Assembly (NCBI GenBank): GCA_043819795.1
Contig: JBDREN010000049.1
Span: forward strand, 2,379 to 66,378
DNA length: 64,000 bases
Direction: 5' to 3'
Source: Elusimicrobiota bacterium
GTDB taxonomy: Bacteria > Elusimicrobiota > Elusimicrobia > UBA1565
Position 1 is the first letter of the stretch. Every line of letters starts with the position of its first letter. Below are positions 41,706 through 58,663 of this stretch, piece after piece. The notes under the pieces were generated by a model. The model was not told where the DNA came from. It ran no database searches and was given only the letters and a program-made list of their open reading frames with translations. Made by a program: the position numbers and the translations under genes.

Positions 41706-44700
41706 TTGGCGGCGGCGCTTGATGACAAGCGGGGACGTAACTTCTTACACTACATCAAGGACATGAGAGCGGGAAGAGCGGGCAGCGAAAAGGCCAGGCT
41801 CGCGGCCGCGGCCGAGTCGGGGCTGCTCGATACGCCGCCGGAGGAGCGTTTCGACCGCATCACGCGGATCGCCCGGCGGCATTTCGGGACCTCGGTGGCC
41901 TACATCTCCCTGGTGGACGCCGACCGCGAGTGGTTCAAGTCCCGGCAGGGACTGCGCCTGCGGTCCGTCCCGCGGGAAGTCTCGTTCGGCGCGCGGGTCG
42001 TCCGGAAGAGCGGGGTATTCTCTCTCGTGGACGCCCGCAAGGACCCGAAGTTCTCCGAGCATCCCCTGGTGGCCGGAGGGCCGCGCGTCCGGTTCGTGGC
42101 GGCATGCCCGCTTTCCACATCGGACGGAAGCCGGGTCGGCGCTCTGGCGATCGCGGACCGGAAGCCCAGACGGCTGGGGAAAGGGGATCTCGGCGCGCTG
42201 CGCGACCTGGCCCGGATCGCCGAGGCGGAGCTGCGCGCTTCCGGGGCTCATGATCCGGCCGCCGGGACGCTCCGGCGGGTCCGGGACCTGCAGGACTTCG
42301 TGGACAACGTGCCCGAGCTCATCCAAAGCGTCGCTCCCGACGGGAGTTTCCGGTACGTGAACCGGGCCTGGCGCCGGGCCCTGGGCTACGACGAGGATGA
42401 TGTCGCGCGGCTCAACCTCTTCGACATCATCGCCCCGGAGAGTTTCGCGCATTGCCAGGACGTCTTTAAAAGGGTGATGTCCGGGGAGTACGTCCAAGAC
42501 ATGGAGGCGGTGTTCCTCGCCAAGGGCGGGGGCAAGGTATTCCTTTCCGGGAGCGCGAACTGCCACATGGAAAGCGGCAAGCCCACGCACACCCGGGCCA
42601 TTTTCAGAGACGTCACGGAGCAGAAGCGCGCGGAGGCCGAGTTGCGGAAGCGGACGTATGAGCTCGGCGAACGGGTCAAGGAGCTGAACTGCCTCTACGG
42701 GATCTCGGCTCTGTCCGAGAGGGCGGATATCTCGTTGGAGGAGTTCCTCCAGGAGACCGCGGAGCTCATCCTCCGTTCGTGGCAGTATCCGGAGGTCACC
42801 TGCGCGCGCATCACTTTGGAGGGCCGGGAGTTCAGGACGAGGAACTTCCGCGAGAGTCCCTGGAAACAAACCGCGGACCTCCAGGCGCGCGGCGCGCGGT
42901 TCGGCTCCGTCGAGGTGTATTACCTCGAGAAACGGCCGCGGCGCTACGAAGGCCCCTTTCTCAAGGAGGAGCGGAGGCTGCTCAACGCTATCGCGGAGCG
43001 GTTGGGGAAGATCGCGCAGCGCCGGCGAGTGGAGGACGCTCTCAGGAAGGGCGAGGCCGGTTACAGGACGCTCGTGGACAACCTGCCGCAGAAGGTTTTC
43101 CTGAAGGACGAAAATTCCGTCTACCTGTCCTGCAATGAGAGGTACGCGCGCGACCTGAAGATCCGTCCCGAGGAGATCCTGGGAAGGACGGACTACGAGT
43201 TCTTCCCCCGGGAGCTCGCCGAGAAATACAGGACCGACGACAAGAGGATCATGGAGTCGGGCAGGATCGAGGATCTGGAGGAGGAGTACATAGAGGACGG
43301 CCGGCGGGCGATCATCCAGACCGTAAAGACGCCGATCAAGGACGACTCGGGCGTCGTCGTCGGGGTGCTGGGCATCTTCTGGGACATCACGGAGCGCAAG
43401 CGGGCGGAGCAGAAGCTGCGCCAGCTGTCGCTCGCCGTCGAGCACAGCCCGAACATCGTGATGATCACCGATCCCGAGGGCAAGATCGAATACGTCAATC
43501 CGGCGTTCTCCTCGGTGGCCGGATACGCGCCCGAGGACGTGCTCGGGCGGGGCGCGGGGGAGCTGGGCGAGCAGTCCGCCGAGGAGCAGGGGCGGATGTG
43601 GGCCGCCATCAGGTCCGGCACGGTATGGCGGGGAGAGTTCCCGAACAAGACCAAGTCCGGCGGGTCCTACTGGGAGCTGGCCTCGATCGCTCCGATCAAG
43701 GACGAGGACGGGAATATCACTCATTTCGTCAAGGTCGCGCAGGACATCACCGAGCGCAAGCGCATGGAGGCCGAGCTGGCCAAGGCCCGGGACCAGGCCC
43801 TGGCGGCGGCCAAGGCCAAGGCCCAGTTCCTGGCCAAGATGAGCCACGAGCTTCGCACGCCCCTCAACGCCATCATCGGCATGAGCGACCTGCTCTTGGA
43901 TACCCCGCTCAAGCACCAGCAGCGGGAATACGCGTCCACGGTCCACGATTCCGGCGAGGTGCTGCTGTCCTTGATCAACGACGTCCTGGACTTCTCCAAG
44001 CTCGAGGTCGGGAAGCTCCAGCTGGAAAGCGTCGAGTTCGACCTTCGCTTGCTCTTAGAGGAGGCGGCCCAGCTCTGCTCGTTCCAGGCCCACGCGAAGG
44101 GGCTGGAGGTGCTGCTCGCCATGCCCGACGACGTGCCGAGCGCCCTGCGCGGGGATTCGGGCCGGCTGCGCCAGATCCTGATGAATTTCCTGGGCAACGC
44201 CGTGAAGTTCACGGAGAAGGGCCAGGTGGTCCTGCTCGCGTCCAAGGAAGAGGAGGACGAGCGGCGCGCGATGCTGCGGCTGGCGGTGGCGGATACGGGC
44301 CTCGGGATCGAGCCCGAGACGCAGGCCCGCCTGTTCGAGGCCTTCACCCAGGCGGACGCCTCGACCACCAGGAGGTTCGGCGGGACGGGTCTCGGGCTGG
44401 CCATCTCGCGGCAGATCATCGAGCGGATGGGAGGAGAGTTCGGGGTCGAGAGTTCTCCGGGCATCGGCTCGACCTTCTGGTGCCGGGTTCCTTTCGAGAA
44501 GGCGCCGGGCGAGGGCTCCGCCGAGGCCGCGCGCAAGCCGGATTTCTCGGGCGCGCGGGTGCTCGTGGTCGACGACAACGCGGCCAACCGCGAGATCATG
44601 CGCGAGCGGCTCTCGGGCTGGGGGATGCGGCCGGATGTGGCCGCGGGAGCCCCCGAGGCGCTGGACAGGCTGCGGCGGGAGGCGGCGGGACCGGACCCGC

Positions 44701-45680
44701 ACCGTCTCCTGCTCACGGACATGCGGATGCCGGAGACGGACGGCGCGGACCTGGCGCGGGAGGTGCGCCGGGACCCGGCCTTGGCGGACGTTCCGATCGT
44801 GGTGATGACCTCGCTGGGGCAGTCGCTTCCCGCGGACCAGGCGCGCGAGGCCGGGATCGTGGGCTGGCTCTACAAGCCGGTCCGGTCGGCGGAGCTTCTC
44901 GCCTGTCTCGCCTTGGTCCTGGGCAAGGGCGGGCGGGAGCCCGCGGGGCCGGCGCCCGCACCTCCTCGATGGCGCGCGCGACGCAGACAGCGTCTTCGCG
45001 TGCTTCTCGTCGAGGATAACCCCGTGAACCGGAAAGTAGCCCTGATCCAGCTCGACAGGCTGGGGTACCAGGCCGACGCGGCGGCCAACGGCCTGGAGGC
45101 GCTCCGCGCGTTCGAGAAGGGCTCCTATGACCTGGTGCTCATGGACTGCGAGATGCCGGAGATGGACGGCTATCAGGCGACCGCGGAGATCCGCCGCCGC
45201 GAGGGGGCCCAGGATCGCGTCCCCATCATCGCCATGACGGCGCACGCGCTGAAAGGGGACCGCGAGAAGTGTCTGGCGGCCGGGATGGACGACTACGTCT
45301 CCAAGCCGGTCCGGTTCAAGGACCTGTCGGCGGCGCTGGCGCGCTGGGAGGATCCGCTGGACCGTTCCGTCGTGGACGATCTGCGCGAGGTCGCCGGCGA
45401 TGTGAGCGAGGTGGCCGGCGTCTTCCTGGAGGACGCCCCGAAGCGGATCGCGGCGATGCGCGGAGCCGTCTCGGCGGGCGATTCCCATAAGCTCGCTTTC
45501 GAGAGCCACCAGCTCAAGGGCGCGAGCGGCAGCATTGGCGCGAGGCGTCTGCGCCGGCTCTGCGCCCGGATCGAGGCGATCGCCAAGTCGGGCGCCGTCT
45601 CCGAGGTCGAGGGGCTCCTCAGCGGGCTGGAGGACGAGTTCCAGGAGGTTCAGGCGGGGCTCGAGAGGAATACTAGATAG
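41706..45680 (+). CDS. Soluble hybrid sensor histidine kinase (GAF, PAS repeats, HisKA, HATPase_c, 2x REC, HPt)
   Basis: No TM segment. GAF-like N-terminus and PAS repeats (FRDVTEQKRAE, FWDITERKRAE, VAQDITERKRME boundaries). H-box MSHELRTPLNAIIGMSDLL, G-boxes DTGLGI / GGTGLGLAI, receivers VLVVDDN..LLLTDMRMPETDG and VLLVEDNPVN..LVLMDCEMPEMDG, HPt ESHQLKGASGSIGA. TTG start at 41706 (alternative ATG 41763). Confidence 0.9.
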   Translation: MAAALDDKRGRNFLHYIKDMRAGRAGSEKARLAAAAESGLLDTPPEERFDRITRIARRHFGTSVAYISLVDADREWFKSRQGLRLRSVPREVSFGARVVRKSGVFSLVDARKDPKFSEHPLVAGGPRVRFVAACPLSTSDGSRVGALAIADRKPRRLGKGDLGALRDLARIAEAELRASGAHDPAAGTLRRVRDLQDFVDNVPELIQSVAPDGSFRYVNRAWRRALGYDEDDVARLNLFDIIAPESFAHCQDVFKRVMSGEYVQDMEAVFLAKGGGKVFLSGSANCHMESGKPTHTRAIFRDVTEQKRAEAELRKRTYELGERVKELNCLYGISALSERADISLEEFLQETAELILRSWQYPEVTCARITLEGREFRTRNFRESPWKQTADLQARGARFGSVEVYYLEKRPRRYEGPFLKEERRLLNAIAERLGKIAQRRRVEDALRKGEAGYRTLVDNLPQKVFLKDENSVYLSCNERYARDLKIRPEEILGRTDYEFFPRELAEKYRTDDKRIMESGRIEDLEEEYIEDGRRAIIQTVKTPIKDDSGVVVGVLGIFWDITERKRAEQKLRQLSLAVEHSPNIVMITDPEGKIEYVNPAFSSVAGYAPEDVLGRGAGELGEQSAEEQGRMWAAIRSGTVWRGEFPNKTKSGGSYWELASIAPIKDEDGNITHFVKVAQDITERKRMEAELAKARDQALAAAKAKAQFLAKMSHELRTPLNAIIGMSDLLLDTPLKHQQREYASTVHDSGEVLLSLINDVLDFSKLEVGKLQLESVEFDLRLLLEEAAQLCSFQAHAKGLEVLLAMPDDVPSALRGDSGRLRQILMNFLGNAVKFTEKGQVVLLASKEEEDERRAMLRLAVADTGLGIEPETQARLFEAFTQADASTTRRFGGTGLGLAISRQIIERMGGEFGVESSPGIGSTFWCRVPFEKAPGEGSAEAARKPDFSGARVLVVDDNAANREIMRERLSGWGMRPDVAAGAPEALDRLRREAAGPDPHRLLLTDMRMPETDGADLAREVRRDPALADVPIVVMTSLGQSLPADQAREAGIVGWLYKPVRSAELLACLALVLGKGGREPAGPAPAPPRWRARRRQRLRVLLVEDNPVNRKVALIQLDRLGYQADAAANGLEALRAFEKGSYDLVLMDCEMPEMDGYQATAEIRRREGAQDRVPIIAMTAHALKGDREKCLAAGMDDYVSKPVRFKDLSAALARWEDPLDRSVVDDLREVAGDVSEVAGVFLEDAPKRIAAMRGAVSAGDSHKLAFESHQLKGASGSIGARRLRRLCARIEAIAKSGAVSEVEGLLSGLEDEFQEVQAGLERNTR

Positions 45681-45712: not shown

Positions 45713-47005
45713 ATGACATCCGAAACCCGTGGGTACGCGATCGTCTTGAGCGCGCTCCTGCTTCTGGCCGGGGGAGCCGGGGCCGGTCATGCGGCGCCGG
45801 ACAAGCTGGGGAAGGTCAACGTCCTGGGCGTCTGGAAAGGCGAGGAGCTGCGCAGCTTCCGGGCCGTGGTGAAGCCGTGGGAAAAGGAGACGGGCGGCAA
45901 GATGCGTTTCGAGGGCAGCCGGGACCTGTCGGCCGTCTTGACGGCTCGGGCGGCGAAGGGCGACGCGCCCGACGTCGCCATCCTGCCCAATCCCGGCCTC
46001 ATGGTCCAGCTGGCGAAGACGAAGAAGCTCGTCCCCCTCGACGGGATGCTGGATATGACGCATTTCGAGGCGGAGTACGCGCGGACCTGGATCGAGCTGG
46101 GATCGGTGGAGGGCAGCCTCTACGGCGTCTTCTACAAGGCCGCCAACAAGAGCACGCTTTGGTACAGCCCCCAGCAGTTCTCCGACCACCAGTGGCCGAT
46201 CCCGCGGACCTGGAAGAGCCTCCTGGCGGTGTCGGAAAGGATCCACGAGGAGGGCAAGACCCCCTGGGCCCTGGGCCTGGAAAGCGGGGATGCGAGCGGC
46301 TGGCCGGCCACCGACTGGATCGGCGAGATCCTGCTCAAGGAGTACGGCCCGGAGAAATACGACGCGTGGGTCGCGCATGAGATCCCCTGGACCGACGAAG
46401 CCGTGCGCTCGGCGTGGGAGAATTTCGGGCGGATCGCGCACGGCGAGGGATACGTGGCGGGAGGCGCTTCCGGGATATTGACCACCGGCTTCCGGGAAGC
46501 GGCGTACCGGGTCTTCCGGAAGCCACCGAAGGCGTATCTCTACTTCCTCGGGAGCTTTACCAAGAAATTCATCACCGAGCGGTTCTCCGGCCTGATGCCG
46601 GCGAAGGACTATTCCTTCATCCCGTTCCCGGCCTTGAACCCCGCATACAGCGGGGCCGTGACCGGCGGGGCGGACGTGGTCGTCGTGTTCAAGGACAACG
46701 CGACCACGCGCTCGTTCATCAACTATCTCGCCTCGGCCGAGGCTCAGGAGATCTGGGTCGAGCGCGGGGGCTTCACGGCCGTCAACCGGAAGGTCAGGCT
46801 CCACAGCTATCCCGACTGGGTCTCCGCGCGGATCGCCTTGCAGCTGTCGAACGCCAAGGTCTTCCGCTTCGACGCCGACGACCAGATGCCGGCCGAGGTC
46901 CAGAAGGCCTTCTGGAAGGGAGCGCTCGACTACGTCCGTGATCAGGCGAGCCTGGACCGCGTCCTCGAAGACATCGAAGCCGTCGCCCGGAAGGCCTACC
47001 GGTAG
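45713..47005 (+). CDS. ABC transporter extracellular solute-binding protein (family 1, sugar-type), orphan
   Basis: Signal peptide YAIVLSALLLLAGGAGAGHA and family-1 SBP pattern (VNVLGVWKGEE..DVAILPNPGLM..YKAANKSTLWY). No permease or ATPase genes follow. Confidence 0.85.
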   Translation: MTSETRGYAIVLSALLLLAGGAGAGHAAPDKLGKVNVLGVWKGEELRSFRAVVKPWEKETGGKMRFEGSRDLSAVLTARAAKGDAPDVAILPNPGLMVQLAKTKKLVPLDGMLDMTHFEAEYARTWIELGSVEGSLYGVFYKAANKSTLWYSPQQFSDHQWPIPRTWKSLLAVSERIHEEGKTPWALGLESGDASGWPATDWIGEILLKEYGPEKYDAWVAHEIPWTDEAVRSAWENFGRIAHGEGYVAGGASGILTTGFREAAYRVFRKPPKAYLYFLGSFTKKFITERFSGLMPAKDYSFIPFPALNPAYSGAVTGGADVVVVFKDNATTRSFINYLASAEAQEIWVERGGFTAVNRKVRLHSYPDWVSARIALQLSNAKVFRFDADDQMPAEVQKAFWKGALDYVRDQASLDRVLEDIEAVARKAYR

Positions 47006-47470: not shown

Positions 47471-47771
47471 GTGTAGTGAACCATAAATCCCTTGACATTC
47501 GGGCGATCGATTTCGGCCTCCGGCTAGGCGCGGGGAGCGCGCATGCCCGCAGGTATGTAAGCGACGAGCAACGACGCCGGAAGCCAAAAGCGCCCGCCCC
47601 CTCCTCCTTGACGCGGACAGCGGCGAAATTCTATGGAAAGGGGAGGCCCGATCCCGGCCGATTCCCACGTTGCTCCTCGGTTGCATAGCTTAAGCCATGC
47701 GCCCTCATCGCGCCTCGAAATCGACTCGGGCTCGGGCCTCCAAATGACAAGGGATTTATGATTCACTACAC
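47471..47771. mobile_element. MITE-like non-autonomous element (~300 bp) bounded by 29-bp terminal inverted repeats
   Basis: GTGTAGTGAACCATAAATCCCTTGACATT (47471-47499) versus the reverse complement of 47743-47771 (GTGTAGTGAATCATAAATCCCTTGTCATT) matches at 27/29. Imperfect complementarity continues inward (CGATCGATTTCGG / CGAAATCGACTCG). No ORF inside. Confidence 0.45.
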
Positions 47772-47941
47772 TAGCGATGGCCACTTACTGATTCGGATGG
47801 GGCAAATCCTTTCTATAGCGCAGTATTGTTAAATATGAAACATGTGGCGCTGCTAAACGTTGCAAAAGAGAAACTAGAAGCAGTTTGGAGGCATTCTGAA
47901 CTGGTCAAAAAGAACGAAAAAAACGCAACTATTGGTGGCTA

Positions 47942-47970
47942 TTGCAAAATGGAACGATATCTGCTATAAT
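47942..47970 (+). promoter_or_regulatory. Promoter of the PAS/AAA+ regulator gene (sigma-70 TTGCAA-17-TATAAT, overlapping a sigma-54-like GG-N10-GC element)
   Basis: TTGCAA 47942-47947, 17-nt spacer, TATAAT 47965-47970 with TG at 47962-47963. Also TGGAACGATATCTGCT (47950-47965). RBS GGGAG lies 7 nt before ATG 48011. Confidence 0.5.
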
Positions 47971-48010
47971 AGAACCATAGCATACGTTTCCAGCCGCCGG
48001 GAGTTGATAT

Positions 48011-49369
48011 ATGCAGTTTGAAGGCCAAGGTCGTTTTTTCGAGACCATCCTCCGTTGTGTCGCTGACGGCGTGTTCACGGTGGACCGCGACTGGCGTATC
48101 ACCTCCTTCAATAAGGCGGCCGAGCGCATCACGGGCATGAGCGCCCGGCAGGCCATGGGCAAGAGATGCTCCGAAGTCTTTCACGCGGACCTCTGCGGTG
48201 ACGGCTGCGCCATCAGGCGGGCTCTCGAGACCAAACGCGAGGTCATCGAGCAGCCGGCCAATATCCGCGACCAGCGCGGCAGGGCGATCCCGATAAGCAT
48301 CAGCGCGGCCGTGCTTCGGGGGGAGGACGGGACCGTCCTCGGCGGGGTCGAGACGTTCCGCGACCTGTCGGCCATCGAGCAGCTCAGGCGCGAGATCCGG
48401 AGCCAGTACACCTTCGAGGAGATCGTCGGCAAGAGCGAGGCTTTCCAGAAGGTGTTCTCCATCCTGCCGGACGTCGCCGCCAGCGAGAGCACGGTCCTCA
48501 TCGAAGGCCCGAGCGGCTCCGGCAAACAGCTCCTGGCGCGGACCATACACAACCTGAGCCCCCGCCGGGATCGGCCTTACGTCGTGGCGAACTGCGGGAT
48601 GATGCCGTCCGGCCGCTGCGCGTCCGAGCTTTTCGGCCACGTGCGAGGCGCCTTCAAGGACGCCAAGGGGGACCGGCTCGGCCGCATCGCGCAGGCCGAA
48701 GGGGGGACCATCTTCCTGGACGAGATCGGCGACCTGTCGATGGAGAGCCAGGTCAGGCTCCTCAAGGTCCTTCGGGACGGAGAATACGAGCCGCTGGGCG
48801 GCGTCAGTCCCCGGCGCGCCGATGTGCGCGTGGTCGCTGCCACGAGCAAGAGCCTGCCGGATCTGGTCGGGCGGGGGCTTTTCCGCGACGATCTCTACTT
48901 CCGCCTGGCGGTGGTGCGGCTGAGCATACCGCCCCTGTCCGAGCGGCGCGAGGACATCCCCTGCCTGGTCGAGCACTTCGTCCAGCGCTTCAACGCCAAG
49001 CGCGGCAAGAGCATCCAGGGGGTGACGCCCGCGGCCATGGAGCTTCTCATGCGCCATGGTTTTCCCGGGAACGTGCGCGAGCTGGAGAACCTGATCGAAT
49101 GCGGCTTCGCTCTATGCCACGGCGGATGGATGGACGTCGGCCATCTGCCCGAGGATCTGAGGCCGTCGCGGCGGCCGGGCGCCGCCGGGCGCCGCCTCGA
49201 GGGCGCGTCCCTGCTCCGGCACATCGAGGCGGACGCGGTCCGCGCCTCCTTGGGGCGGAACGCGGGCCATCTCGGCCGCACGGCCGAGGAGCTGGGCATC
49301 AGCCGGACCACGTTGTGGCGCAAGATGAACAAGTACGCCATCGAAGCGGACGAGTTCCGGGCCGGTTGA
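48011..49369 (+). CDS. PAS-domain AAA+ enhancer-binding-protein-type transcriptional regulator (NtrC family, no receiver domain; GAFTGA replaced by GAFKDA)
   Basis: N-terminal PAS (ILRCVADGVFTVDRDWRITSFNKAAERITG), Walker A GPSGSGKQ, ELFGHVRGAFKDA, GGTIFLDEIGDL, RVVAAT, FRDDLYFRL, GNVRELEN, C-terminal Fis-type HTH GISRTTLWRKMNKY. Confidence 0.9.
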   Translation: MQFEGQGRFFETILRCVADGVFTVDRDWRITSFNKAAERITGMSARQAMGKRCSEVFHADLCGDGCAIRRALETKREVIEQPANIRDQRGRAIPISISAAVLRGEDGTVLGGVETFRDLSAIEQLRREIRSQYTFEEIVGKSEAFQKVFSILPDVAASESTVLIEGPSGSGKQLLARTIHNLSPRRDRPYVVANCGMMPSGRCASELFGHVRGAFKDAKGDRLGRIAQAEGGTIFLDEIGDLSMESQVRLLKVLRDGEYEPLGGVSPRRADVRVVAATSKSLPDLVGRGLFRDDLYFRLAVVRLSIPPLSERREDIPCLVEHFVQRFNAKRGKSIQGVTPAAMELLMRHGFPGNVRELENLIECGFALCHGGWMDVGHLPEDLRPSRRPGAAGRRLEGASLLRHIEADAVRASLGRNAGHLGRTAEELGISRTTLWRKMNKYAIEADEFRAG

Positions 49370-49388
49370 CCCGGGGGGAGAGAACGCG

Positions 49389-50762
49389 GTGAGCACCCAA
49401 AGGAAATACAGCTACTTCGTCGAGCCCAAGGCGCTCGAGGTCGCGGAGCGTCCGCGAAAATTCCTCATGGCATTCGCGGCCGTGCTGAAGAACGCCAGCT
49501 ACGGGCTGGCGCTCGATACGTACGCGCGCCTGAGCACCAAATGCGGGCGTTGCGTGGCCTCCTGTCAGCTCTATCAGACCACGCGCGAGGAGCGGGACAT
49601 CCCCTGCCATCGCTCCGAGCTCCTGCTGCGGGTGTACCGGCGGTACTTCACGCATTCGGGCCGCCTCAAGGCCAAGATATTCAGCGGTTTCGAGTTGACG
49701 GACGCCTACTTGGACGAGATGGGCGAGGCCTACTACCGCTGCACCGCCTGCCGGCGGTGCAAGGCCACCTGCCCCATGGGCATCGACCACGCCCTGGTCA
49801 CTCATCTGGCCCGGTGGCTGCTCTCGGAGATCGACGTCATCCCCAAGGCGCTGTTGGTGGCGACGCGCGAGCAGCTCGAGGGCGTCGGCAATACCTCGGC
49901 CATCCCGGTCCCCGCGCTCAAGGACACCTGCGAGTTTCTGGAGGAGGAGCTCAAGGAGATCACCGGCGTGGACATCAAGTTCCCCATGGATGTCGAGGGC
50001 GCCGAGTACGTCTTCTTCCCGGCGGTCTCGGACTATCTGCTCGAGGCGGACACCCTCATGGGCAACGCGGCCGTCATGCACGTCACCGGCGGGTCGTGGA
50101 CCATCGGCACGGGCAACTACGACGGCATCAACTACGGCCTGTTCTACAGCGATCGCATGATGGAGCGGATCGTCAACAACGTCGTCAAGGAGGTCCGCCG
50201 CCTCAAGGGGAGGAAGGTCCTCGTCGGCGAATGCGGCCACGCCACTCGCAGCGCCTGGTACGTGCCGGCCTTCGGCGGCCCGGACGCGCCGCCGGTGGTC
50301 AATTGCTTGCAGTACGCCCACCGGATGCTCGAGGCCGGGAAGCTCCCCCTGAAGAAAGAGCTTATCAAGGAGCGGGTCACCTATCACGATCCGTGCAATA
50401 TCGCCAGGAGCGGGCGGATCACCGAGGAGCCTCGGGAGCTCCTTAAGGCTATCTGCGGGGACTTCGTGGAGATGACGCCGAACCGCGCGGAGAACTACTG
50501 CTGCGGCGGAGGCGGCGGCACGGTCTCCATCGACGAGATCCGGGCTTTCCGCACGGGTCTCATGGGAAAGCGCAAGGCGGATCAGATCCGCGCGACCGGC
50601 GCCAAATACGTCGTGTCGCCCTGCGCCAACTGCAAGAAACAGCTCCGCGAGGTCTGCGAGGACAACGGCCTCAACGAGGTCGAGGTCGTGGGCCTGCACG
50701 ACCTGCTGCTGAAGGCGATCGACTTCGGGGTCCCCGAGAAGAAAGGAGAGGACGATGGGTGA
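49389..50762 (+). CDS. HdrD/DsrK/HmcF-like iron-sulfur protein (2x 4Fe-4S + CCG domain), cytoplasmic
   Basis: CGRCVASCQLY and CTACRRCKATCPMGIDH ferredoxin motifs. CCG-domain signatures YHDPCNIARS and NYCCGGGGG. Confidence 0.85.
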   Translation: MSTQRKYSYFVEPKALEVAERPRKFLMAFAAVLKNASYGLALDTYARLSTKCGRCVASCQLYQTTREERDIPCHRSELLLRVYRRYFTHSGRLKAKIFSGFELTDAYLDEMGEAYYRCTACRRCKATCPMGIDHALVTHLARWLLSEIDVIPKALLVATREQLEGVGNTSAIPVPALKDTCEFLEEELKEITGVDIKFPMDVEGAEYVFFPAVSDYLLEADTLMGNAAVMHVTGGSWTIGTGNYDGINYGLFYSDRMMERIVNNVVKEVRRLKGRKVLVGECGHATRSAWYVPAFGGPDAPPVVNCLQYAHRMLEAGKLPLKKELIKERVTYHDPCNIARSGRITEEPRELLKAICGDFVEMTPNRAENYCCGGGGGTVSIDEIRAFRTGLMGKRKADQIRATGAKYVVSPCANCKKQLREVCEDNGLNEVEVVGLHDLLLKAIDFGVPEKKGEDDG

Positions 50763-51465
50763 GCTAGAGATCTGGACCGAGTGGGCGCGCGGGCCGCTGT
50801 TCAGGGCCGCGCTGGCGTTCATGATCCTGGGCCTTCTGCGTCACGCGGCGTTGACCATATGGGAGCTGGCGGGGATCATGTACCGCGCCGGCGACAAGGC
50901 CTTCCCGTGGAGGCGGGCATTCTCCGCCACGCTAAAATGGCTTTTCCCGGTGGGGCAGATCAAGAACCGTGTCCTCTACAGCCTGACCACGCTCGGCTTC
51001 CATGCCGCCGTCATCATCGTTCCCGTTTTTCTCGCGGGCCACGTCGCGCTCTGGGAGCGGGGCACGGGCCTGTGCTGGCCGACCATCCCCAACGGCGTGG
51101 CGGACGTGCTGACGATCATGGCCGTGCTCGCGGCGGCCTTGCTCGTGGCGGAGCGCGCGGCCGCGCGGGACTCCCGGGCGCTGAGCCGCTTCCAGGACTA
51201 CGCCTTGCCCCTGCTCGTGGCCGCGCCCTTCGCGACCGGCTTCCTGGTCATGCATCCGGCTTTAAACCCGTTCGGCCATGAAGCGACGATTCTGGTCCAC
51301 GTGTTGAGCGCGGATATTCTGTTCATCCTCATCCCGCTGACCAAGCTGAGCCACATGATCCTGCTCCCGGGCACGCAGATCATCTCCGAGCTGTCCTGGC
51401 ATTTCCCGCCGGACGCCGGCAGGAAAGTGGGCGTCGATCTCGGGAAGGAGAAGCAACCCATATGA
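50755..51465 (+). CDS. NarI/DsrM/HmcE-like membrane cytochrome b subunit
   Basis: 8-nt overlap with the upstream gene. About 5 TM helices with conserved His (LLRHAAL, GFHAAVIIVP, GHVALWE, HVLSADILF, KLSHMILLP). Confidence 0.7.
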   Translation: MGELEIWTEWARGPLFRAALAFMILGLLRHAALTIWELAGIMYRAGDKAFPWRRAFSATLKWLFPVGQIKNRVLYSLTTLGFHAAVIIVPVFLAGHVALWERGTGLCWPTIPNGVADVLTIMAVLAAALLVAERAAARDSRALSRFQDYALPLLVAAPFATGFLVMHPALNPFGHEATILVHVLSADILFILIPLTKLSHMILLPGTQIISELSWHFPPDAGRKVGVDLGKEKQPI

Positions 51466-52595
51466 AGAAGCCCGTCGCCATCCTTACGGACACGACGCTC
51501 TGCACCGGCTGCGAGGAATGCGTCGCGGCGTGCAAGAAGGAGAACGGCCTGGGCGAGGATCGCCGGTGGCGCTGGCAAAGCTCCGTGAGCGAGCTTTCCG
51601 CGTCGCGCTTCACCGCAATCATCCGTCGGCCCGGCAACCGCTACGTCCGCCAGCAGTGCCGGCACTGCGTGGACCCGGCGTGCGTGAGCGCCTGCATCGT
51701 GGGCGCGCTGCGGAAGACGGAAGAAGGCGCGGTGGTCTACGACCAGGATAAGTGCATCGGCTGCCGTTACTGCATGCTGGCCTGCCCCTACGGGATCCCG
51801 CGCTACGATTGGGAGAAGCCGATCCCGTACATCAGGAAGTGCACGCTCTGCTATGACAGGCTTGAGGAGGGAAAGGCCCCCGCCTGCGTGGAGGCCTGCC
51901 CCGAGAAGGCGACGATATTCGGCTCCCGCTCCGATATGCTGGCCGAGGCCCATCGGCGCCTGAAACGGCATCCCGGGAAGTACGTCCAGAAGGTCTACGG
52001 GGAACGCGAGGTGGGGGGGACGTCGGTCCTCTACATCTCGGACATACCCCTTGATTTCCTCGGCTGGCAGACCGATCCCGGCGAGCGGCCGCTGCCGGAC
52101 CTCACGTGGGCCGCCCAAAGGAAGATCCCGGCCGCGGCTCTGGGGGTGTTCGGGCTCATGGGCGGCACCTACTGGGTCATCGGCCGGAGGATGCAGGCCG
52201 CGGCGCGGGCGGGCCTGAAAGACGCGCCCCGGGAAGGGGACGCCCCGTCCGTGGGGCACGGGCATCCGGAGCAGGGAGGGGCCCTCTCCGGCCTGAAGAC
52301 GGCCCTGTGGATGCCTCTCGGCGTGGTGGCGGCCGTGACCATCGTGCGTTTCGCGCGGAATCTGGACGCGGCCGCGAGCCTCGGGGACGGAGCCCTCTGG
52401 ACCCTGTGGCTCGCCCTCGGCGTGGCGGGAGGCACCGGTCTCGGGGCGGGGATCCATTGGCTCGCCGCCCGCCGCAAGAAGGCGCCGGAGGAGGACGCGG
52501 AGCCCGAGGAAGGAACTCCCACCCCGCCCGTCCAGGCGTCGAAGACTTCCGTTCCCAAGCAGATCGCGGGCGACGGCGGCCCGAAGGAGCGATAG
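51462..52595 (+). CDS. Four-cluster 4Fe-4S ferredoxin subunit (HybA/HmcB/DsrO/NrfC-like) with C-terminal TM helices and no signal peptide
   Basis: ATGA overlap. CTGCEECVAAC, CRHCVDPACVSAC, CIGCRYCMLACP, CTLCYDR..CVEACP. The first Cys is residue 14 (MKKPVAILTDTTLC). Three hydrophobic segments lie after residue ~215. Confidence 0.85.
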   Translation: MKKPVAILTDTTLCTGCEECVAACKKENGLGEDRRWRWQSSVSELSASRFTAIIRRPGNRYVRQQCRHCVDPACVSACIVGALRKTEEGAVVYDQDKCIGCRYCMLACPYGIPRYDWEKPIPYIRKCTLCYDRLEEGKAPACVEACPEKATIFGSRSDMLAEAHRRLKRHPGKYVQKVYGEREVGGTSVLYISDIPLDFLGWQTDPGERPLPDLTWAAQRKIPAAALGVFGLMGGTYWVIGRRMQAAARAGLKDAPREGDAPSVGHGHPEQGGALSGLKTALWMPLGVVAAVTIVRFARNLDAAASLGDGALWTLWLALGVAGGTGLGAGIHWLAARRKKAPEEDAEPEEGTPTPPVQASKTSVPKQIAGDGGPKER

Positions 52596-52599
52596 GGCG

Positions 52600-54561
52600 A
52601 TGATGCCTCTGAGAAGAATCAAGAGCCTGCTCTGGTTCGTCCTGGGCGCGGGCATGGTGACCATCGCCGCGCGGCTGCTCACCGGGCTCGGCGCGGTCAC
52701 CAACCTGTCCCACAACGTTTCCTGGGGCCTGTGGAACGCGGTCAAGATCAGCATCGTGCCCCTCTCGGCCGGAGGGTTCGTTTTGGCTGCGATCGTCTAC
52801 GTCTTCCATATGGAGAGGTTCCGTCCCGTGCTCCGTTTGGCCATCCTTACGGGGTTTTTGGGCTACTCGACCTTCGCCACGATGCTCATGTTCGATATCG
52901 GGGTGCCCTACCGGATATGGCATCCCATGGTCTACTGGCAGCACCATTCCGTGCTCTTCGAAGTGGCGTGGTGCGTGATGCTGTATCTGACCGTGCTGGC
53001 CCTCGAGTTCTTGCCCAACGTGCTGGAGCATCCTCTGCTGAAGCACCCCCTGCTCCAGAAGGGATACAAGCTCCTGAAGAGCGCGACCGTACCCCTGGTG
53101 ACCGCGGGGATCGTGCTGTCCACGCTGCACCAGTCGTCGTTGGGCTCGCTGTTTTTGATCGTCCCCCACCGTCTCGATCCCTTATGGTACAGCCCGCTGA
53201 TACACGCGCTCTTCCTGGTCTCCGCCGTCGGGATGGGGCTTCTGGTGATCGCCGTGGAGGCGGTCCTGATCGAGCGTCTCTACGGCGTCAAGGCGCCGCT
53301 GGACGTCCTCGCCCCTTTGGCCCGCGCGGGCGCGGTGGTGATGGCCCTCTTCTTGGCCGTCAGGCTGGCCGACCAGGTCGCTCGCGGGGTGCTCCCGGGT
53401 GCTCTGAGCACATCTCCGATGGCGGCGGCATTCGTCCTTGAGACTCTGATCGCCTCGATCGTGCCGCTGCTGCTTCTGCGCAGGAGCGTCCGCGAGAGCC
53501 GCGGGGGCCTGTTCGCCTGCTCTCTTTCCGCGGTGCTGGGAGTCGTCTGGTACAGGTCGAACGTCGCCTTGCTGGCCATCGACTGGGGCGAGGCGGCCTA
53601 TTTCCCGGCGTGGACCGAGTTCGCCCTGTGCTTCGGCATACTGGCCGGGTCGGGCTTGGTGTTCTTCTTGCTGCTGGAGAACCTGGACATTTATTACGGG
53701 CCGGCCGCATCCGGCCGTGACCGCGAGCCGCAGGTGCCGGGGTTGGCGTTCGAGGCTTGGCTGGCGGACGCGAGGATCACCGCGGCCAGGCGCTATTCCC
53801 TGTTCATCGTGGCGGGCGCGGCGGCGGCCGTCTTGTTTCTCCCCGAGGGCACGGTGTTCGGAGCCAGGCCCGCGGACACGCCGGCGGCGCAGGCCCGGCG
53901 GGTCCGGGGCTTGTCGGTCCGGACCGGCGGCGGACGCGTCAGCACGCTGCGCCTCGGCGAGAGGCCGGTCCCCGCTAAGGGCCGAGTGAAGCGCCTGCCG
54001 CTTTACCTGATTGACGGCGACCGCGATGAGGACGCGGTCCTCTTCGATCACGCGGGCCATGTCAAGCGGGCGGGCGGCGAGAAGCGCTGCGGGGTGTGCC
54101 ATCACCTGAACATGCCGCTCGACGAGAACACCTCCTGCCATGAATGTCATCGCGACATGTACGAGCCCGCCTCCGTGTTCAGCCACGCATCGCATGTGCG
54201 CGAACTCGGGGGGAACGCGGGCTGCGTCAAGTGCCATGAGGATCCTCTCGTGGTGAAGGACCGCCGGACGGCCGTCGCTTGCGGGGAATGCCACTCCGAT
54301 TCGGCGGCAAAGGGCTCCTTCGTCGAGGCGCCGGGGCCGAGGTGGGGGGCCGCGCCGGGCTACGCGGACGCGATGCACGGCCTCTGCGAGAGTTGTCATA
54401 AGAAGAAGGCGAAAGAAGAGCCGGGCCGTTATCCCGCGGCGCTGGGGCGTTGCGCCGCCTGCCACGATACGGACCGCCCCATGGATATCCGTCGGATGGC
54501 GCCGCGAAGTGATAGAATGCGGGCCATGCGCGCCGAGGAACGCGGGCTCTCGGGCGGCTGA
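52600..54561 (+). CDS. NrfD/DsrP/HmcC-like quinone-interacting membrane subunit fused to a C-terminal hexahaem cytochrome c domain
   Basis: NrfD hallmark GLGAVTNLSHNVSWGLWNAVKISIV plus multiple TM helices, then an extra TM (RRYSLFIVAGAAAAVLFL). Six CxxCH motifs lie between 54088 and 54465 (CGVCH, CHECH, CVKCH, CGECH, CESCH, CAACH). Confidence 0.85.
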   Translation: MMPLRRIKSLLWFVLGAGMVTIAARLLTGLGAVTNLSHNVSWGLWNAVKISIVPLSAGGFVLAAIVYVFHMERFRPVLRLAILTGFLGYSTFATMLMFDIGVPYRIWHPMVYWQHHSVLFEVAWCVMLYLTVLALEFLPNVLEHPLLKHPLLQKGYKLLKSATVPLVTAGIVLSTLHQSSLGSLFLIVPHRLDPLWYSPLIHALFLVSAVGMGLLVIAVEAVLIERLYGVKAPLDVLAPLARAGAVVMALFLAVRLADQVARGVLPGALSTSPMAAAFVLETLIASIVPLLLLRRSVRESRGGLFACSLSAVLGVVWYRSNVALLAIDWGEAAYFPAWTEFALCFGILAGSGLVFFLLLENLDIYYGPAASGRDREPQVPGLAFEAWLADARITAARRYSLFIVAGAAAAVLFLPEGTVFGARPADTPAAQARRVRGLSVRTGGGRVSTLRLGERPVPAKGRVKRLPLYLIDGDRDEDAVLFDHAGHVKRAGGEKRCGVCHHLNMPLDENTSCHECHRDMYEPASVFSHASHVRELGGNAGCVKCHEDPLVVKDRRTAVACGECHSDSAAKGSFVEAPGPRWGAAPGYADAMHGLCESCHKKKAKEEPGRYPAALGRCAACHDTDRPMDIRRMAPRSDRMRAMRAEERGLSGG

Positions 54562-54565
54562 AACC

Positions 54566-55681
54566 ATGGCCCCCAAAGAGATAGAAAGCTGGCTTCGATC
54601 GAGCCTCTTTAACGAGGTCCCGGTGAGCATCTGCGTGATCGACCGGGGTTTCCGGATCATCGAGGCGAACCGGAGGTTCAGGGAGGAATACGGCCCCTGG
54701 AAGGACCGGGCGTGCCACGAGGTCTGCAAGGGTCTGGAGGAGCCCTGCGAGCGTTGCGGCGCGGTCAAGACCTTCTCGGACGGGCGCGTGCGCAACCGGG
54801 AGGAGACGGGAGCGGGCGGGAAGCACTACCTGGTGCACATGGTCCCCATCACCACCGACGGCGGGGATATCTCCTACGTCATCGAGACGTTCACGGATAT
54901 CACGCAGGTGAAGCAGCTGGAGGGCGAGAAGCGCGAAGCCGAGCGTCTGGCCGCCGTCGGCGAGACCGTGGCCGGCATCGCCCACGGCATGAAGAACGTG
55001 CTTACCGGGCTCGAAGGCGGCGTCTATGCCGTCAATACGGGCATCCAGCATGGCGACGACGAGAGGATCACCGAAGGCTGGGCCATGCTCGAGGAGAATA
55101 TCGCGCGCATCTCGGAGTTTGTCAAGGAGTTCCTGGCTTTCTCCAAGGGGCGCATCGCGCGGGTGGCCTTCGTGGACCCCAACGCCCCGGCGCGGGCGGT
55201 CTTTGAGCTCTTCCGGGAGAAGGCCGCGCAGGCGGGCATCGAGCTGAAGGCGGACCTGCAAGAGGGGATTCCTCCCGCGCCCCTGGACGAGCAGGGGATC
55301 CACGCCTGCCTGGCCAACCTCGTATCGAACGCCCTGGACGCCTGCTCCATGGGCGAGCAGCGGCGCGCGTGCGTGGTGACGATTCGCTCCCGGGAGCGCA
55401 GCGGGACGCTAGTGTACGAGGTTGCGGACAACGGCCGCGGGATGGACTACGAGATCAGTAGGAAAGTGTTTTCGAGGTTCTTCAGCACGAAGGGCTCGGA
55501 CCGGGGCACGGGTCTGGGGCTGCTCACCACTAAGAAGACCATCCACCAGCACGGCGGCCGGGTCTCGTTCAGCTCCGAGGAGAGCAGGGGCTCGGTGTTC
55601 CGCATCGAGCTTCCCCGGGAAAGACTGCCCAAGCCGGGCGGGAAGCCCGCCCAACGACAGGCCGCGGAAGGAGACGCCTGA
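54566..55681 (+). CDS. Cytoplasmic PAS sensor histidine kinase
   Basis: ATG 54566 (MAPKEIESWL..). PAS with a four-Cys cluster, H-box LAAVGETVAGIAHGMKNVL, N/G boxes LVSNALDA, DNGRGM, GTGLGL. Confidence 0.85.
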   Translation: MAPKEIESWLRSSLFNEVPVSICVIDRGFRIIEANRRFREEYGPWKDRACHEVCKGLEEPCERCGAVKTFSDGRVRNREETGAGGKHYLVHMVPITTDGGDISYVIETFTDITQVKQLEGEKREAERLAAVGETVAGIAHGMKNVLTGLEGGVYAVNTGIQHGDDERITEGWAMLEENIARISEFVKEFLAFSKGRIARVAFVDPNAPARAVFELFREKAAQAGIELKADLQEGIPPAPLDEQGIHACLANLVSNALDACSMGEQRRACVVTIRSRERSGTLVYEVADNGRGMDYEISRKVFSRFFSTKGSDRGTGLGLLTTKKTIHQHGGRVSFSSEESRGSVFRIELPRERLPKPGGKPAQRQAAEGDA

Positions 55682-56229
55682 TGGACAAAGAGAACGCCAA
55701 AGGACGCGCCGAGGATAAGACCGTACTCGTGGTCGATGACGAGCCGAACGTGCGCCGCCACCTGGCCCACATCCTAGAGGACGCCGGCTTCAAGGTCCTT
55801 ACGGCCTCCGATGGGGATGAGGCCCTGAAGACCATCCGGGAGCGGCGCCCGGACATCATCTCGCTCGACCTGGTCATGCCGCGCAAGAGCGGGCGCCGGC
55901 TGCTCTACGAGCTGAAGAAGGATAAGGAGCTCTCCCGCATCCCGGTGGTCATCGTCACCGCGCACGCCCAGGACGAGCTGGGCCAGAGCGACATGGAAGC
56001 CATCAGGGAGAGCATGATCATATCGGGCCCGGGCTTCTATCTGGAGAAGCCGGTTAGGCCCATGGACTACGTGCGCTGCATCCAGGAAGCCCTGGGCATC
56101 GAAGTGGCGGATCAAGCCGCGGACAAAGTCAGCCTCAAGGACGAGCTGAAGCGGCAGATGCAGGGGGCGGAGCCGCACGCGCTGCGCCGCGCCCTCGAGG
56201 CGTTGAGAAAGAAAGGCCCGCCGCGCTAG
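55681..56229 (+). CDS. Response regulator, receiver domain with short C-terminal extension (no recognised output domain)
   Basis: TGATG overlap with the kinase gene. VLVVDDEPNVR..DIISLDLVMPRKSG..VVIVTAH..LEKP. Confidence 0.85.
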   Translation: MDKENAKGRAEDKTVLVVDDEPNVRRHLAHILEDAGFKVLTASDGDEALKTIRERRPDIISLDLVMPRKSGRRLLYELKKDKELSRIPVVIVTAHAQDELGQSDMEAIRESMIISGPGFYLEKPVRPMDYVRCIQEALGIEVADQAADKVSLKDELKRQMQGAEPHALRRALEALRKKGPPR

Positions 56230-56248
56230 AGGGCCGAGGAGACCTGCG

Positions 56249-56602
56249 ATGGCGAAGAAGATCCTGATCGTCGAAGACGAGCCGCACGTCGTGAAGTATC
56301 TCGAGATGTTCCTCCACGACGCGGGCTTCCAGACGGTATCCGCGAGCGACGGTCAGACGGGTCTGGAGCTGGCCAAGCGCGAGAAGCCGGACCTGGTGAT
56401 CCTGGACCTTATGATGCCGAAGAAGACGGGGACGGACTTCTACCGGAAGCTCTCCAGGGACAAGGAGCTCGGCGATACCCCCGTCATCGTGGTCAGCGGT
56501 CTGGCCGGCCGAGATCTCGTCGTCAGGAAGCCTGCGGCGGTGTTCGACAAGCCCCCGGACCGCGAGGGGCTCATCGCCGCCATCAAGAAAGCCCTCCCGT
56601 AG
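56249..56602 (+). CDS. Single-domain response regulator (receiver only)
   Basis: KILIVEDEPHV..DLVILDLMMPKKTG..VIVVSG..FDKP. Confidence 0.85.
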   Translation: MAKKILIVEDEPHVVKYLEMFLHDAGFQTVSASDGQTGLELAKREKPDLVILDLMMPKKTGTDFYRKLSRDKELGDTPVIVVSGLAGRDLVVRKPAAVFDKPPDREGLIAAIKKALP

Positions 56603-56651: not shown

Positions 56652-56676
56652 CGGCAGGAACGTTGCGTGCTATAAT
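56652..56676 (+). promoter_or_regulatory. Promoter of the hydrogenase operon: sigma-54-like -24/-12 (GG-N10-GC) overlapping an extended -10 TGCTATAAT
   Basis: CGGCAGGAACGTTGCG (56652-56667) and AGGAACGTTGCGTGCT (56656-56671) both fit GG-N10-GC. TGCTATAAT at 56668-56676. 33 nt upstream of ATG 56709. Confidence 0.45.
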
Positions 56677-56708: not shown

Positions 56709-57752
56709 ATGCTGTACAAGGTGATCACGAAGGCCGAGTTTCGGAAGTTCGTCGACGGCCTGATCCAGGACAACCAGACTATAGGCCCCAAGCGGGTCGC
56801 CACGGACGCGAAAGGCAAGCCCGTCTACCAGTTTGTCGAGGTCCGCTCCTTCGACGAGTTGGACCTCGACTACACGATCACCTACTCCTCGGTGAAGAAT
56901 TTCTTCCACCCCTTCCGCGAGGAGCTGTCTCGTTTCAAGCTGAAAGATGACGATTGGGAGCAGGAGATCGAATACCGCGTCAATCCGAGGGTCATCATCG
57001 GCGTGCGGCCGTGCGACATCAACGCCTTGGCGATCCTGGACAAGGTGTTCTTGAGCGGGAGATTCCCCTCGCCGTACTACATCGCCCGGCGCCGGAACAC
57101 CTTCCTGATCGGAATGGACCATCTGCCCCTGGATGACTGCTTCTGCGAGTCCCTGAACCGGCACGCCCCGCGCGAGGGGTTCAACCTCTACTGCTCGGAC
57201 ATCGGGGACAGATACTATCTCTCGATCCTTTCCTCAAAGGCCTTCAGCTTCCTCAAGAACGTGAGGACGAGCGAGCCCTCCAAGGCGGACAACAAAAGAT
57301 ACATCGAGAGAAGAAAGCTCATCAAACGGAGCTTCAAGACCAAGGTGGAGGTCTCGGGCCTGCCGAGCTTCCTGGACATCGAGTTCAAGTCCCCGATATG
57401 GGATAAATGGGGGGACAAGTGCCTGAACTGCGGGACATGCGCCATGGTCTGCCCCACGTGCTACTGCTACGGGGTGGAGCAGTCCGTGGACGTGGACCTG
57501 AAGACCGCCCGCAAGGAGCGCATGCTGTACTCCTGCAACGTCGTGGATTTCGCGGAGGTGGCCGGAGGGCACAACTTCAGGCCGAAGAAGGCGGACAGGC
57601 TGAAGTACCGGTTCTATCACCATTACAGGGGTTTCGAGGAGAACGCCGACGAGCAGATCTGCGTTGGCTGCAACCGGTGCGGCAGGGCCTGCCTGGCGGG
57701 GATCAACCCGAAGGACGTGATCAACGACTTGAGGCTGGAGACCGGAGAATGA
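56709..57752 (+). CDS. [NiFe] hydrogenase group 3b-type beta subunit (AsrA/HydB-like Fe-S protein)
   Basis: [37 protein letters not shown]. First gene of the beta-gamma-delta-alpha order known from sulfhydrogenases. Confidence 0.8.
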
Positions 57753-58663
57753 AGGCGGGATTCAAAATACCCAGGCAGGACATCAATCTCGAGCCGTTCA
57801 TGACGGCGCCTCCCCAGTTCAACCGCAAGACCATCGTCATGCGCACGGACAAGGTCTACAAGTGCGAGCTCATCAACATCGTCGAGCTGACCTCCATGGA
57901 GAAGCTCTTCCATCTCAAGATCATCGACCCCCGCGAGAGGAAGCTGTTCTCCTTCCGGCCGGGACAGTTCGTGATGGTCCAGGTGCCCGGCTCCGGGGAG
58001 GTCCCGGTCTCCATATCGAGCTCGAGCAACAACCGGGAGTTCCTGGAGCTGTGCGTCCGCAGGGCGGGGCGCACCACCGGCATGCTGCACCGGGCCCGGA
58101 TCGGCGCGAAGGTGGGGATCCGCGGGCCCTTCGGCTCGTCTTTCCCCATGGAGGAGATGGCTGGCCACAACGTCCTGCTGATCGCCGGAGGGCTCGGCCT
58201 GGCCCCCCTGCGCGCCCCCATCTGCTGGGTCAACGAGCGCCGGGACCAGTACGGCGACGTCCACATCCTCTACGGCGCCAAAGAGCCTTCCCAGATGCTC
58301 TTCACGTACGAATTCAAGGAATGGGAACGGGTGAACCACATCAATCTGCTGACCATCGTCGAGAAGGCGGACAAGGCCTGGAAGGGCGGGACGGGCCTCA
58401 TCACCGAGCTCTTCAGGGATTTCTCCATCAAGCCGCTCGACACCTACGCGATCGTGTGCGGGCCGCCCGTCATGTTCAAGTTCGTGTGCGGGCATCTGGA
58501 CTCCATCGGGGTTCCCATGAACCGCATGTTCGTCTCCCTGGAGCGGCGGATGCACTGCGGCATGGGCAAGTGCTGCCGGTGCATGGTGGGCTCGACGTTC
58601 ACCTGCGTGGAAGGCCCCGTGTTCGACTACTGGAGCGTCATGAATTTGAAGGAGGCGATTTGA
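57749..58663 (+). CDS. [NiFe] hydrogenase group 3b-type gamma subunit (FAD/NAD(P)-binding, 2Fe-2S; AsrB/HydG-like)
   Basis: ATGA overlap (57749-57752). [36 protein letters not shown]-terminal [10 protein letters not shown] cluster. Confidence 0.85.

Follow-up and report, generated by a model that had tools for sequence, protein, structure and literature searches.

In the enhancer-binding proteins (EBPs) that act with sigma-54, the GAFTGA motif of the L1 loop carries the Thr that contacts this sigma factor. Specifically, the equivalent residue of PspF, T86, contacts Region I of sigma-54, and its T86pBpa variant exhibits 0% sigma-54 binding and 146% ATPase activity and forms no open complex (PMC3467059), while NifA is inactivated by a Thr to Pro change at this position (PMC4641369). 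Departures elsewhere in the motif are on record, as DVU2106 of Desulfovibrio vulgaris is a functional sigma-54 activator with a GAFTDA loop (Kazakov et al., 2015, PMC4641369), and DVUA0100, whose loop is GVATGV, is predicted to have kept its function (PMC4641369). EBP homologues with defective loops also occur at sigma-70 promoters, and these include TyrR, DhaR and HupR (Francke et al., 2011), NtrC of Rhodobacter capsulatus and of Caulobacter, and VpsR. Substitutions at position 4 of the loop form a recognised class, with Thr to Glu found in Fusobacterium nucleatum and Jannaschia sp. CCS1, organisms without sigma-54 (Francke et al., 2011); regarding Elusimicrobia, our search of the literature for sigma-54 found no usable statement. 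Here we describe an EBP gene on a 64,000-nucleotide stretch of DNA from an Elusimicrobiota bacterium (contig JBDREN010000049.1, hereafter the window), in which this loop reads GAFKDA and in which the sigma-54 promoter that accompanies the gene in related genomes has been deleted. We give about an even chance to the interpretation that this protein is a lineage-specific EBP decoupled from sigma-54, with its operon read from a sigma-70 promoter.

At the level of sequence, the window EBP matches the sigma-54-independent EBP class in that it has a defective loop, with the Thr to Lys change accompanied by ten further changes at invariant positions of the L1-L2 segment, and a promoter of sigma-70 type (TTGCAA-17-TGCTATAAT) as judged by its sequence only. 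The initial annotation of this gene had pointed to EBPs with degenerate loops that act at sigma-70 promoters, naming R. capsulatus NtrC and HupR, and the literature bears this out. The R. capsulatus and Caulobacter NtrC proteins are reported to be bacterial EBP homologues that retain the AAA+ domain, bind enhancer-like sites upstream and, as their L1 loop is unable to engage sigma-54, act with the sigma-70 holoenzyme (Bowman & Kranz, 1998, as cited in later work); these same proteins are receiver-domain response regulators from which the whole GAFTGA loop is deleted. In contrast, the window EBP is a PAS one-component regulator with a point substitution of Thr to Lys, for which we infer sigma-70 dependence. 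TyrR and DhaR of Escherichia coli, HupR of R. capsulatus and VpsR of Vibrio cholerae likewise have a defective or absent GAFTGA and are sigma-70-dependent, and TyrR and DhaR further resemble the window EBP in having PAS-type sensor domains and no receiver, with sub-threshold NCBIfam similarity to both. The window EBP is nevertheless no orthologue of TyrR, DhaR, HupR or VpsR, as it falls well short of the cut-offs in NCBIfam. The proteins most closely related to it are genuinely coupled to sigma-54, and the loss would accordingly be recent and lineage-specific. EBPs with position-4 substitutions (the Thr to Pro class and Thr to Glu) share with it a single change of the GAFTGA Thr/Ser, a proposed marker of sigma-70 action; the window EBP differs from these in having Lys and in the demonstrable deletion of the orthologous sigma-54 promoter module. 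Finally, DVU2106 is also a PAS-type single-component EBP with the GAFTDA variant, but it keeps the Thr and controls different genes. The parts of the regulator gene are as follows.

48011 to 49369, plus strand: gene for a PAS / AAA+ / Fis-type helix-turn-helix (HTH) EBP of 452 amino acids (open reading frame list, Pfam)
48035 to 48370, plus strand: PAS sensor domain with four family-invariant Cys; 2 of 44 invariant positions deviate
48602 to 48781, plus strand: residues 198-257, which comprise the L1 loop, the sequence on either side of it and the helix before L2; diverged in the window lineage
48647 to 48664, plus strand: L1-loop hexamer GAFKDA, with Lys216 at the sigma-54-contacting Thr and a family-typical Asp217
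49214 to 49336, plus strand: Fis-type HTH DNA-binding domain, family-conserved; 0 of 11 invariant positions deviate

Pfam places a PAS domain at residues 9-120 of the window EBP, Sigma54_activat at 138-304 (E 4e-56), followed by AAA_lid_14, and HTH_8 at 402-442, and the domain scan found no receiver domain. The protein is identical to one annotated on a 91-kb contig of an Elusimicrobiota metagenome-assembled genome (MAG), and the top solved relatives of its AAA+ domain are ZraR, NifA, FleQ and NtrC1. As the initial annotation had stated, the AAA+ core is otherwise canonical, with Walker A (GPSGSGKQ), Walker B (FLDEIG), the R-finger region (FRDDLYFRL) and sensor II (GNVRELEN) all present. The GAFKDA reading also holds, as codons 48647-48664 are GGC GCC TTC AAG GAC GCC, in frame, within the local context ELFGHVRGAFKDA, and ungapped HMMER alignments to solved ZraR, NifA and FleQ pair the Lys with the GAFTGA Thr and the Asp with the second Gly. 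A functional sigma-54 EBP would have Phe at loop position 3 and Thr or Ser at position 4, and position 4 of the window EBP is Lys.

The two substitutions in this loop do not share a history. Among the 120 best homologues (49-72% identity; from Gemmatimonadota, Latescibacterota, Planctomycetota and others) the loop is GAFTDA in 117 and GAFTGA in one, with GAFKDA found only in the window protein. We retrieved 80 further orthologous loci from metagenome contigs by an alignment restricted to the PAS domain, since a whole-protein scan of genome contigs was saturated by the generic IFLDEIGD motif and gave only non-orthologous EBPs of at most 52% identity. All 80 metagenome loci with a readable loop, a set that includes six fetched earlier, have GAFTDA, down to 53% identity. 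The Gly to Asp change is thus the family norm and not the loop lesion for which the initial annotation had taken it, because the validated sigma-54 activator DVU2106 already carries GAFTDA, and approximately 200 orthologues carry it in a family in which 43 of 49 orthologous gaps have a sigma-54 promoter, indicating that GAFTDA is a working sigma-54 loop. The Thr to Lys change, in contrast, is a singleton unique to the window genome, and the same annotation was right to call it anomalous: no other Lys occurs at loop position 4 among 240 proteins, or among approximately 320 relatives overall, and the position is the residue that contacts Region I of sigma-54. At this position the codon is AAG in the window EBP versus ACC, ACG, ACT or ACA in the 80 orthologues, and a search with only the L1-L2 segment found neither a closer relative nor another Lys variant, as the position held only Thr or, in three cases, Ser. 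The initial annotation had set a strain-specific lesion, with orthologues showing an intact motif, against its own proposal, and this is in effect what we observe, as the Thr is retained in the orthologues and only this lineage has the Lys.

The family to which the window EBP belongs, defined by a PAS domain with four Cys, an AAA+ domain and HTH_8 in approximately 450 amino acids at 53% identity or more, is coupled to sigma-54 (the window EBP is 65-73% identical to approximately 100 of its members). In its gene order the EBP is followed by a gap of 160-490 bp, a small Nitro_FeMo-Co-like gene and a HmcF/DsrK-like CCG protein, and then by a HmcE/TmcC-like membrane subunit, a HmcB-like ferredoxin, a NrfD-like-cytochrome c3 fusion, a PAS histidine kinase and two receivers. 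Of 49 distinct gaps, 43 have a GG-N10-GC element (consensus TGGCCCG-N4-TTGCC) whose distance to the small gene is 15-40 nt, relative to 1 of 49 on the reverse complement and a mean of 0.8 (maximum 5) in shuffled sequences. Half-sites TGAAAC/GTTTCA are present in 37 of the 49 gaps versus 4 expected, and their positions are fixed, in an array that spans -90 to -137 relative to the -24 element. By its sequence, this combination of an enhancer array and a -24/-12 promoter is a textbook sigma-54 arrangement. The Cys-rich PAS EBP together with the Hmc-like complex is a conserved and apparently uncharacterised sigma-54 regulon in Gemmatimonadota, Latescibacterota, Planctomycetota and others. Half-sites resembling an upstream activating sequence (UAS) are also located near the EBP's own promoter in many orthologues, which suggests that autoregulation may be a family trait. 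The PAS cysteines (C16, C53, C62 and C66 in the PAS-only alignment) are invariant in the family and are all present in the window EBP, where the pattern RCVADG ... CSEVFHAD-C-xxx-C is encoded at 48056-48208; this pattern suggests a putative Fe-S, metal or thiol-based redox sensor.

Against this background the window locus is exceptional. It retains the family's synteny, which is also kept in loci L001-L003, L084 and L086, in that the genes for the CCG protein, membrane subunit, Fer4_11 protein, NrfD-cytochrome c3 fusion, PAS kinase and two receivers are all present. What it lacks is the GAFTDA loop, UAS/sigma-54 promoter and small gene of the family, as it has GAFKDA and a gap of 19 nt, and a tblastn search found no small Nitro_FeMo-Co-like gene anywhere in the 64-kb window. 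The genes behind the regulator are arranged as follows.

49370 to 49388, plus strand: 19-nt junction from the EBP stop to the CCG-protein start, the scar of a deletion of approximately 520 bp
49389 to 54561, plus strand: genes for a Hmc/Tmc-like membrane redox complex (profile matches and synteny), comprising the next four
49389 to 50762, plus strand: HmcF/DsrK-like CCG protein
50755 to 51465, plus strand: HmcE/TmcC-like membrane subunit
51462 to 52595, plus strand: HmcB-like ferredoxin
52600 to 54561, plus strand: HmcC/NrfD-like protein fused to a cytochrome c3 domain
54509 to 55681, plus strand: PAS histidine kinase, the same gene as in orthologous loci
55681 to 56229 and 56249 to 56602, plus strand: two receiver proteins, the same genes as in orthologous loci, closing the conserved cluster (54509 to 56602 with the kinase)

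Among approximately 60 loci, this is the only one in which the CCG gene begins at +20 from the EBP stop; elsewhere its start is at +538 or beyond, and that of the small gene at +159 to +489. Since neither the CCG protein at its N-terminus nor the EBP at its C-terminus is damaged at the junction, this was a clean deletion of approximately 520 bp, and what it took out was exactly the UAS, the sigma-54 promoter and the first gene. Inside the EBP gene we found neither a plus-strand sigma-54-like site nor a UAS half-site.

The same genome shows a focused divergence of the surface that faces sigma-54. The window EBP deviates at 17 of 163 family-invariant positions, relative to a median of 0 and a maximum of 5 for the other 98 sequences, and these changes are concentrated in L1-L2 (11 of 33 invariant positions versus 6 of 130 elsewhere; Fisher p = 2.6e-5). 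Among the L1-L2 changes are the radical substitutions L202R, E204A, T216K and R257G. In this segment the window EBP matches the family consensus at an identity of 0.60, while the other sequences have a median of 0.88 and never fall below 0.83; its remaining segments are near the ordinary range. The lid (0 of 22), the HTH (0 of 11) and the PAS domain (2 of 44) have few or no deviations at invariant positions. This pattern is not an outgroup artefact, because 17 orthologues that are more distant than the window EBP (53-62% identity) keep this surface almost unchanged, with 0-3 of 33 changes in L1-L2 and 4-14 of 130 elsewhere. Thus, the genome that lost the sigma-54 promoter is also the one in which the sigma-54-contacting surface has changed. 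The deleted promoter module and the diverged L1-L2 surface, both of which lay beyond the view of the initial annotation, constitute stronger evidence for decoupling from sigma-54 than does the loop motif alone.

The initial annotation had also pointed to strong TGCTATAAT elements at two candidate target promoters. These elements are located at 47962-47970 (site 1) and 56668-56676 (site 2), as listed here with the sequences around them.

47836 to 47888, plus strand: enhancer-like half-sites TGAAAC (47836) and GAAAC-N8-GTTTG (47871-47888) in an AT-rich island
47942 to 47970, plus strand: site 1, of sigma-70 type, with -35 TTGCAA, a 17-nt spacer and extended -10 TGCTATAAT, 40 nt before the ATG
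47950 to 47965, plus strand: overlapping sigma-54-like element TGGAACGATATCTGCT (GG-N10-GC), which includes a GGAACG box common with site 2
56652 to 56676, plus strand: site 2, CGGCAGGAACGTTGCGTGCTATAAT, with extended -10 TGCTATAAT 32 nt before the ATG of a [NiFe]-hydrogenase operon

On its two strands, the window has just two TATAAT hexamers, at sites 1 and 2, each within GGAACG-N5-TGCTATAAT, and both hexamers are intergenic, directed at downstream genes and 37-40 nt from the start codon. In the closest relatives the extended -10 is TGCTAGAAT (L001) and TGCTAAAAT (L091), at the same 40-nt distance to the EBP start, so that site 1 is likely the regulator's own ancestral sigma-70-type promoter; in L001 this promoter coexists with a separate sigma-54 promoter for the operon. 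Thus both sites hold real boxes of the extended -10, sigma-70 type, and that of site 1 is kept in the closest relatives. The designation as two targets fared less well, as site 1 is the promoter of the regulator itself and no separate target, and no enhancer sites were found upstream of site 2. Based on base composition, the chance of ATAAT following TGCT is approximately 0.002 at site 1 and approximately 1e-4 at site 2, while a correctly placed GG, given the TGCT, is only mildly improbable. The very low chance of ATAAT after a -12 TGCT argues that the -10 box is the selected feature. Site 1 lies in the AT-rich island, which extends over 47780-48010 with a GC content of 0.42 versus 0.67 for the window. 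The GGAACG box resembles the enhancer half-site GAAACG, and the enhancer of L002 has GAAACGTTGCG...CGTTCC; this box may serve as an operator for the regulator.

Two other assignments of these boxes were considered and rejected. Treating TGCTATAAT as merely the -12 element of a sigma-54 promoter is countered by the relatives, which keep the extended -10 and not the GG, by the complete absence of TATAAT after the -12 GC in the 43 orthologous sigma-54 promoters, and by the poor scores of site 2 with a position weight matrix (PWM) of the family's sigma-54 promoters. An extracytoplasmic function (ECF)-type reading, with GGAAC as the -35, was dropped because by eye nothing is common to the two sites 16-17 nt downstream. 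An exact scan for TGGCAC-N5-TTGCW was uninformative (14 matches versus 16.9 expected).

The explanation that we favor combines these results. Regulators of the ancestral state would bind the TGAAAC/GTTTCA array approximately 90-137 bp upstream of TGGCCCG-N4-TTGCC and activate the adjacent Hmc-like operon. The deletion of approximately 520 bp in the window lineage would have removed the enhancer, the sigma-54 promoter and the first small gene, and the operon, now 20 bp behind the regulator gene, would be read through from the regulator's ancestral sigma-70-type promoter TTGCAA-17-TGCTATAAT. Without a need to remodel the sigma-54 holoenzyme, the contact surface would have drifted or adapted through T216K and ten other L1-L2 changes, with the sensor, the ATPase motifs, the lid and the DNA-binding domain being kept. 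Because the sensor, nucleotide-binding and DNA-binding parts are constrained, the EBP probably still regulates its own promoter and the operon; most likely it persists as a regulator that binds DNA, responds to a signal and works without sigma-54, acting on its own promoter and through it on the fused operon. We infer the loss of sigma-54 activation and the use of sigma-70 at site 1 from this arrangement, as we do the sign and mechanism of whatever regulation would remain. The interest of such a case is that the sigma-54-independent EBP homologues already known are usually old, fixed families with the loop deleted, while here sister lineages retain the full ancestral sigma-54 circuit (enhancer array, -24/-12 promoter and GAFTDA loop) and one lineage shows the derived state. 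If confirmed, it would be a dated and minimal example of the conversion of an enhancer-dependent circuit to a sigma-70 circuit, and would supply a natural Thr to Lys variant for asking what the L1 loop does when sigma-54 is not needed.

Several observations weigh against this explanation, and most of them would be expected if the EBP were still a sigma-54 activator with a variant loop, which we consider unlikely. In that case TGGAACGATATCTGCT at site 1 would be a true -24/-12 promoter under positive feedback through the TGAAAC-like sites, and Lys216 and the other L1-L2 changes would be tolerated, or compensated by changes in Region I of the organism's sigma-54. Indeed, site 1 also fits a sigma-54 promoter, TGGAACG-N4-CTGCT, that holds all near-invariant family positions (G2, G3, T13, G14 and C15) and scores 12.7 bits, rank 4 of approximately 128,000 positions, with the PWM built from the 43 orthologous promoters (training median 16.2 bits). 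The UAS-like half-sites are 60-115 bp upstream of it, a typical enhancer distance, and a GGAACGAT-N3-TG box is located upstream of the EBP gene in eight other lineages (as GGAACGAT). The ATPase motifs are all intact, which a simple sigma-70 regulator would not need, some residual sigma-54 activity may persist with Lys at the Thr position, and DVUA0100 is predicted to function with a GVATGV loop. Approximately half of the L1-L2 changes are also conservative (K/R, E/D, L/M). However, the Thr is a direct sigma-54 contact whose replacement abolishes binding, and only Thr or Ser is tolerated there among the approximately 320 relatives. The promoter assignment has similar difficulties, as L091 lacks the candidate -24 GG (AGTACC there) yet conserves the extended -10, the improbability of ATAAT at both sites marks the -10 box as selected, PWM ranks 1-3 in the window are chance matches in coding sequence, and site 2 scores just 5.6 and 4.0 bits for its two registers (both rank 78). 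Sigma-54 activation by this EBP would also leave unexplained the coincidence with a unique deletion of the sigma-54 module.

Quite unlikely, in our view, is the possibility that the EBP is an activation-dead relic with no regulatory role, the operon being constitutive from the sigma-70 promoter and the gene starting to decay at a surface without purpose. Deletion of the sigma-54 module and a divergence that is focused on L1-L2, with its radical changes, are what this would predict, but the open reading frame is undamaged, as are Walker A/B, sensor II and the R fingers, deviations at invariant positions are nearly absent from the PAS, lid and HTH domains, and outside L1-L2 the EBP is as near the family consensus as ordinary members. 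This indicates that sensing, nucleotide binding and DNA binding are still under purifying selection. A more elaborate scheme, to which we assign a slim chance, is that the EBP is a natural intermediate of a switch from sigma-54 to sigma-70, in which L1-L2 would be remodelled to act with ATP on the sigma-70 holoenzyme at GGAACG-N5-TGCTATAAT promoters with vestigial -24/-12 geometry, co-regulating the Hmc-like complex and the [NiFe] hydrogenase. A sequencing or assembly error at the Lys codon, or a minority variant there that became fixed in the MAG consensus, with GAFTDA in the real protein, is very improbable. The change from ACG to AAG is a single transversion and the sequence is a single MAG contig of which no independent copy was found, but a single base error explains neither the ten further invariant-position changes in the same segment nor the 520-bp structural difference. 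The sigma-54-decoupled interpretation likewise relies on a single sequence, with no relative closer than 73%, and this weighs against it, as it presumes fixation of the Lys and of the deletion in this lineage. On balance the initial annotation is partly supported, in its Thr to Lys change and its sigma-70-like boxes though not in its view of Gly to Asp as a lesion.

Site 2 precedes a cytoplasmic [NiFe]-hydrogenase operon (56709-60686) that codes for a Fer4_22 subunit, an Oxidored_q6 small subunit and a NiFeSe_Hases large subunit, and no TGAAAC/GTTTCA half-site was found upstream of it. This operon is directly downstream of the conserved cluster, and the orthologous loci that we examined have different genes after the two receiver genes.

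The DNA upstream of the regulator gene has additional features. The top family-PWM match in the window, CTTGGCCTTCAAACTGCATA (14.6 bits, 48010-48029, minus strand), overlaps the EBP start codon and is directed away from the EBP, toward the 1-kb upstream intergenic region; it may be a chance match. This 1-kb region gave no Rfam match. Just upstream of the promoter island is an element of approximately 300 nt (47471-47771), single-copy in the window, with 27-32-nt terminal inverted repeats (GTGTAGTGAACCATAAATCCCTTGACA, 2 arm mismatches) and further inverted repeats nested inside. It folds much more stably than shuffled sequences (z = -6.6 and -8.5 for the two strands) and is likewise without an Rfam match, and it may be an insertion resembling a miniature inverted-repeat transposable element (MITE) or a structured RNA. 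In the family, a 16-nt box GGAACGATTCTTGTAG (ending in ...TTGTAA in L109) is located 39-128 nt before the EBP start in L103, L104, L105, L107, L109, L111 and L116. It has GG-N10-GT geometry and conservation ends right after it; its role may be that of an operator or of an unusual, -24/-12-like promoter from which the regulator gene is read.

Elsewhere in the window, a second pair of genes for a NarI-like membrane protein and a CCG paralogue is located at 62269-63964. The paralogue is 32% identical to the CCG protein of the operon, and the pair resembles a Nitrate_red_gam and CCG pair near the orthologue of P0022. A search for rpoN, confined to the 64-kb window, did not find this gene. Upstream of the regulator are a gene for a 1324-amino-acid hybrid sensor kinase (41706-45680; GAF, three PAS, HisKA/HATPase, two receivers and Hpt) and a solute-binding protein gene (45713-47005).

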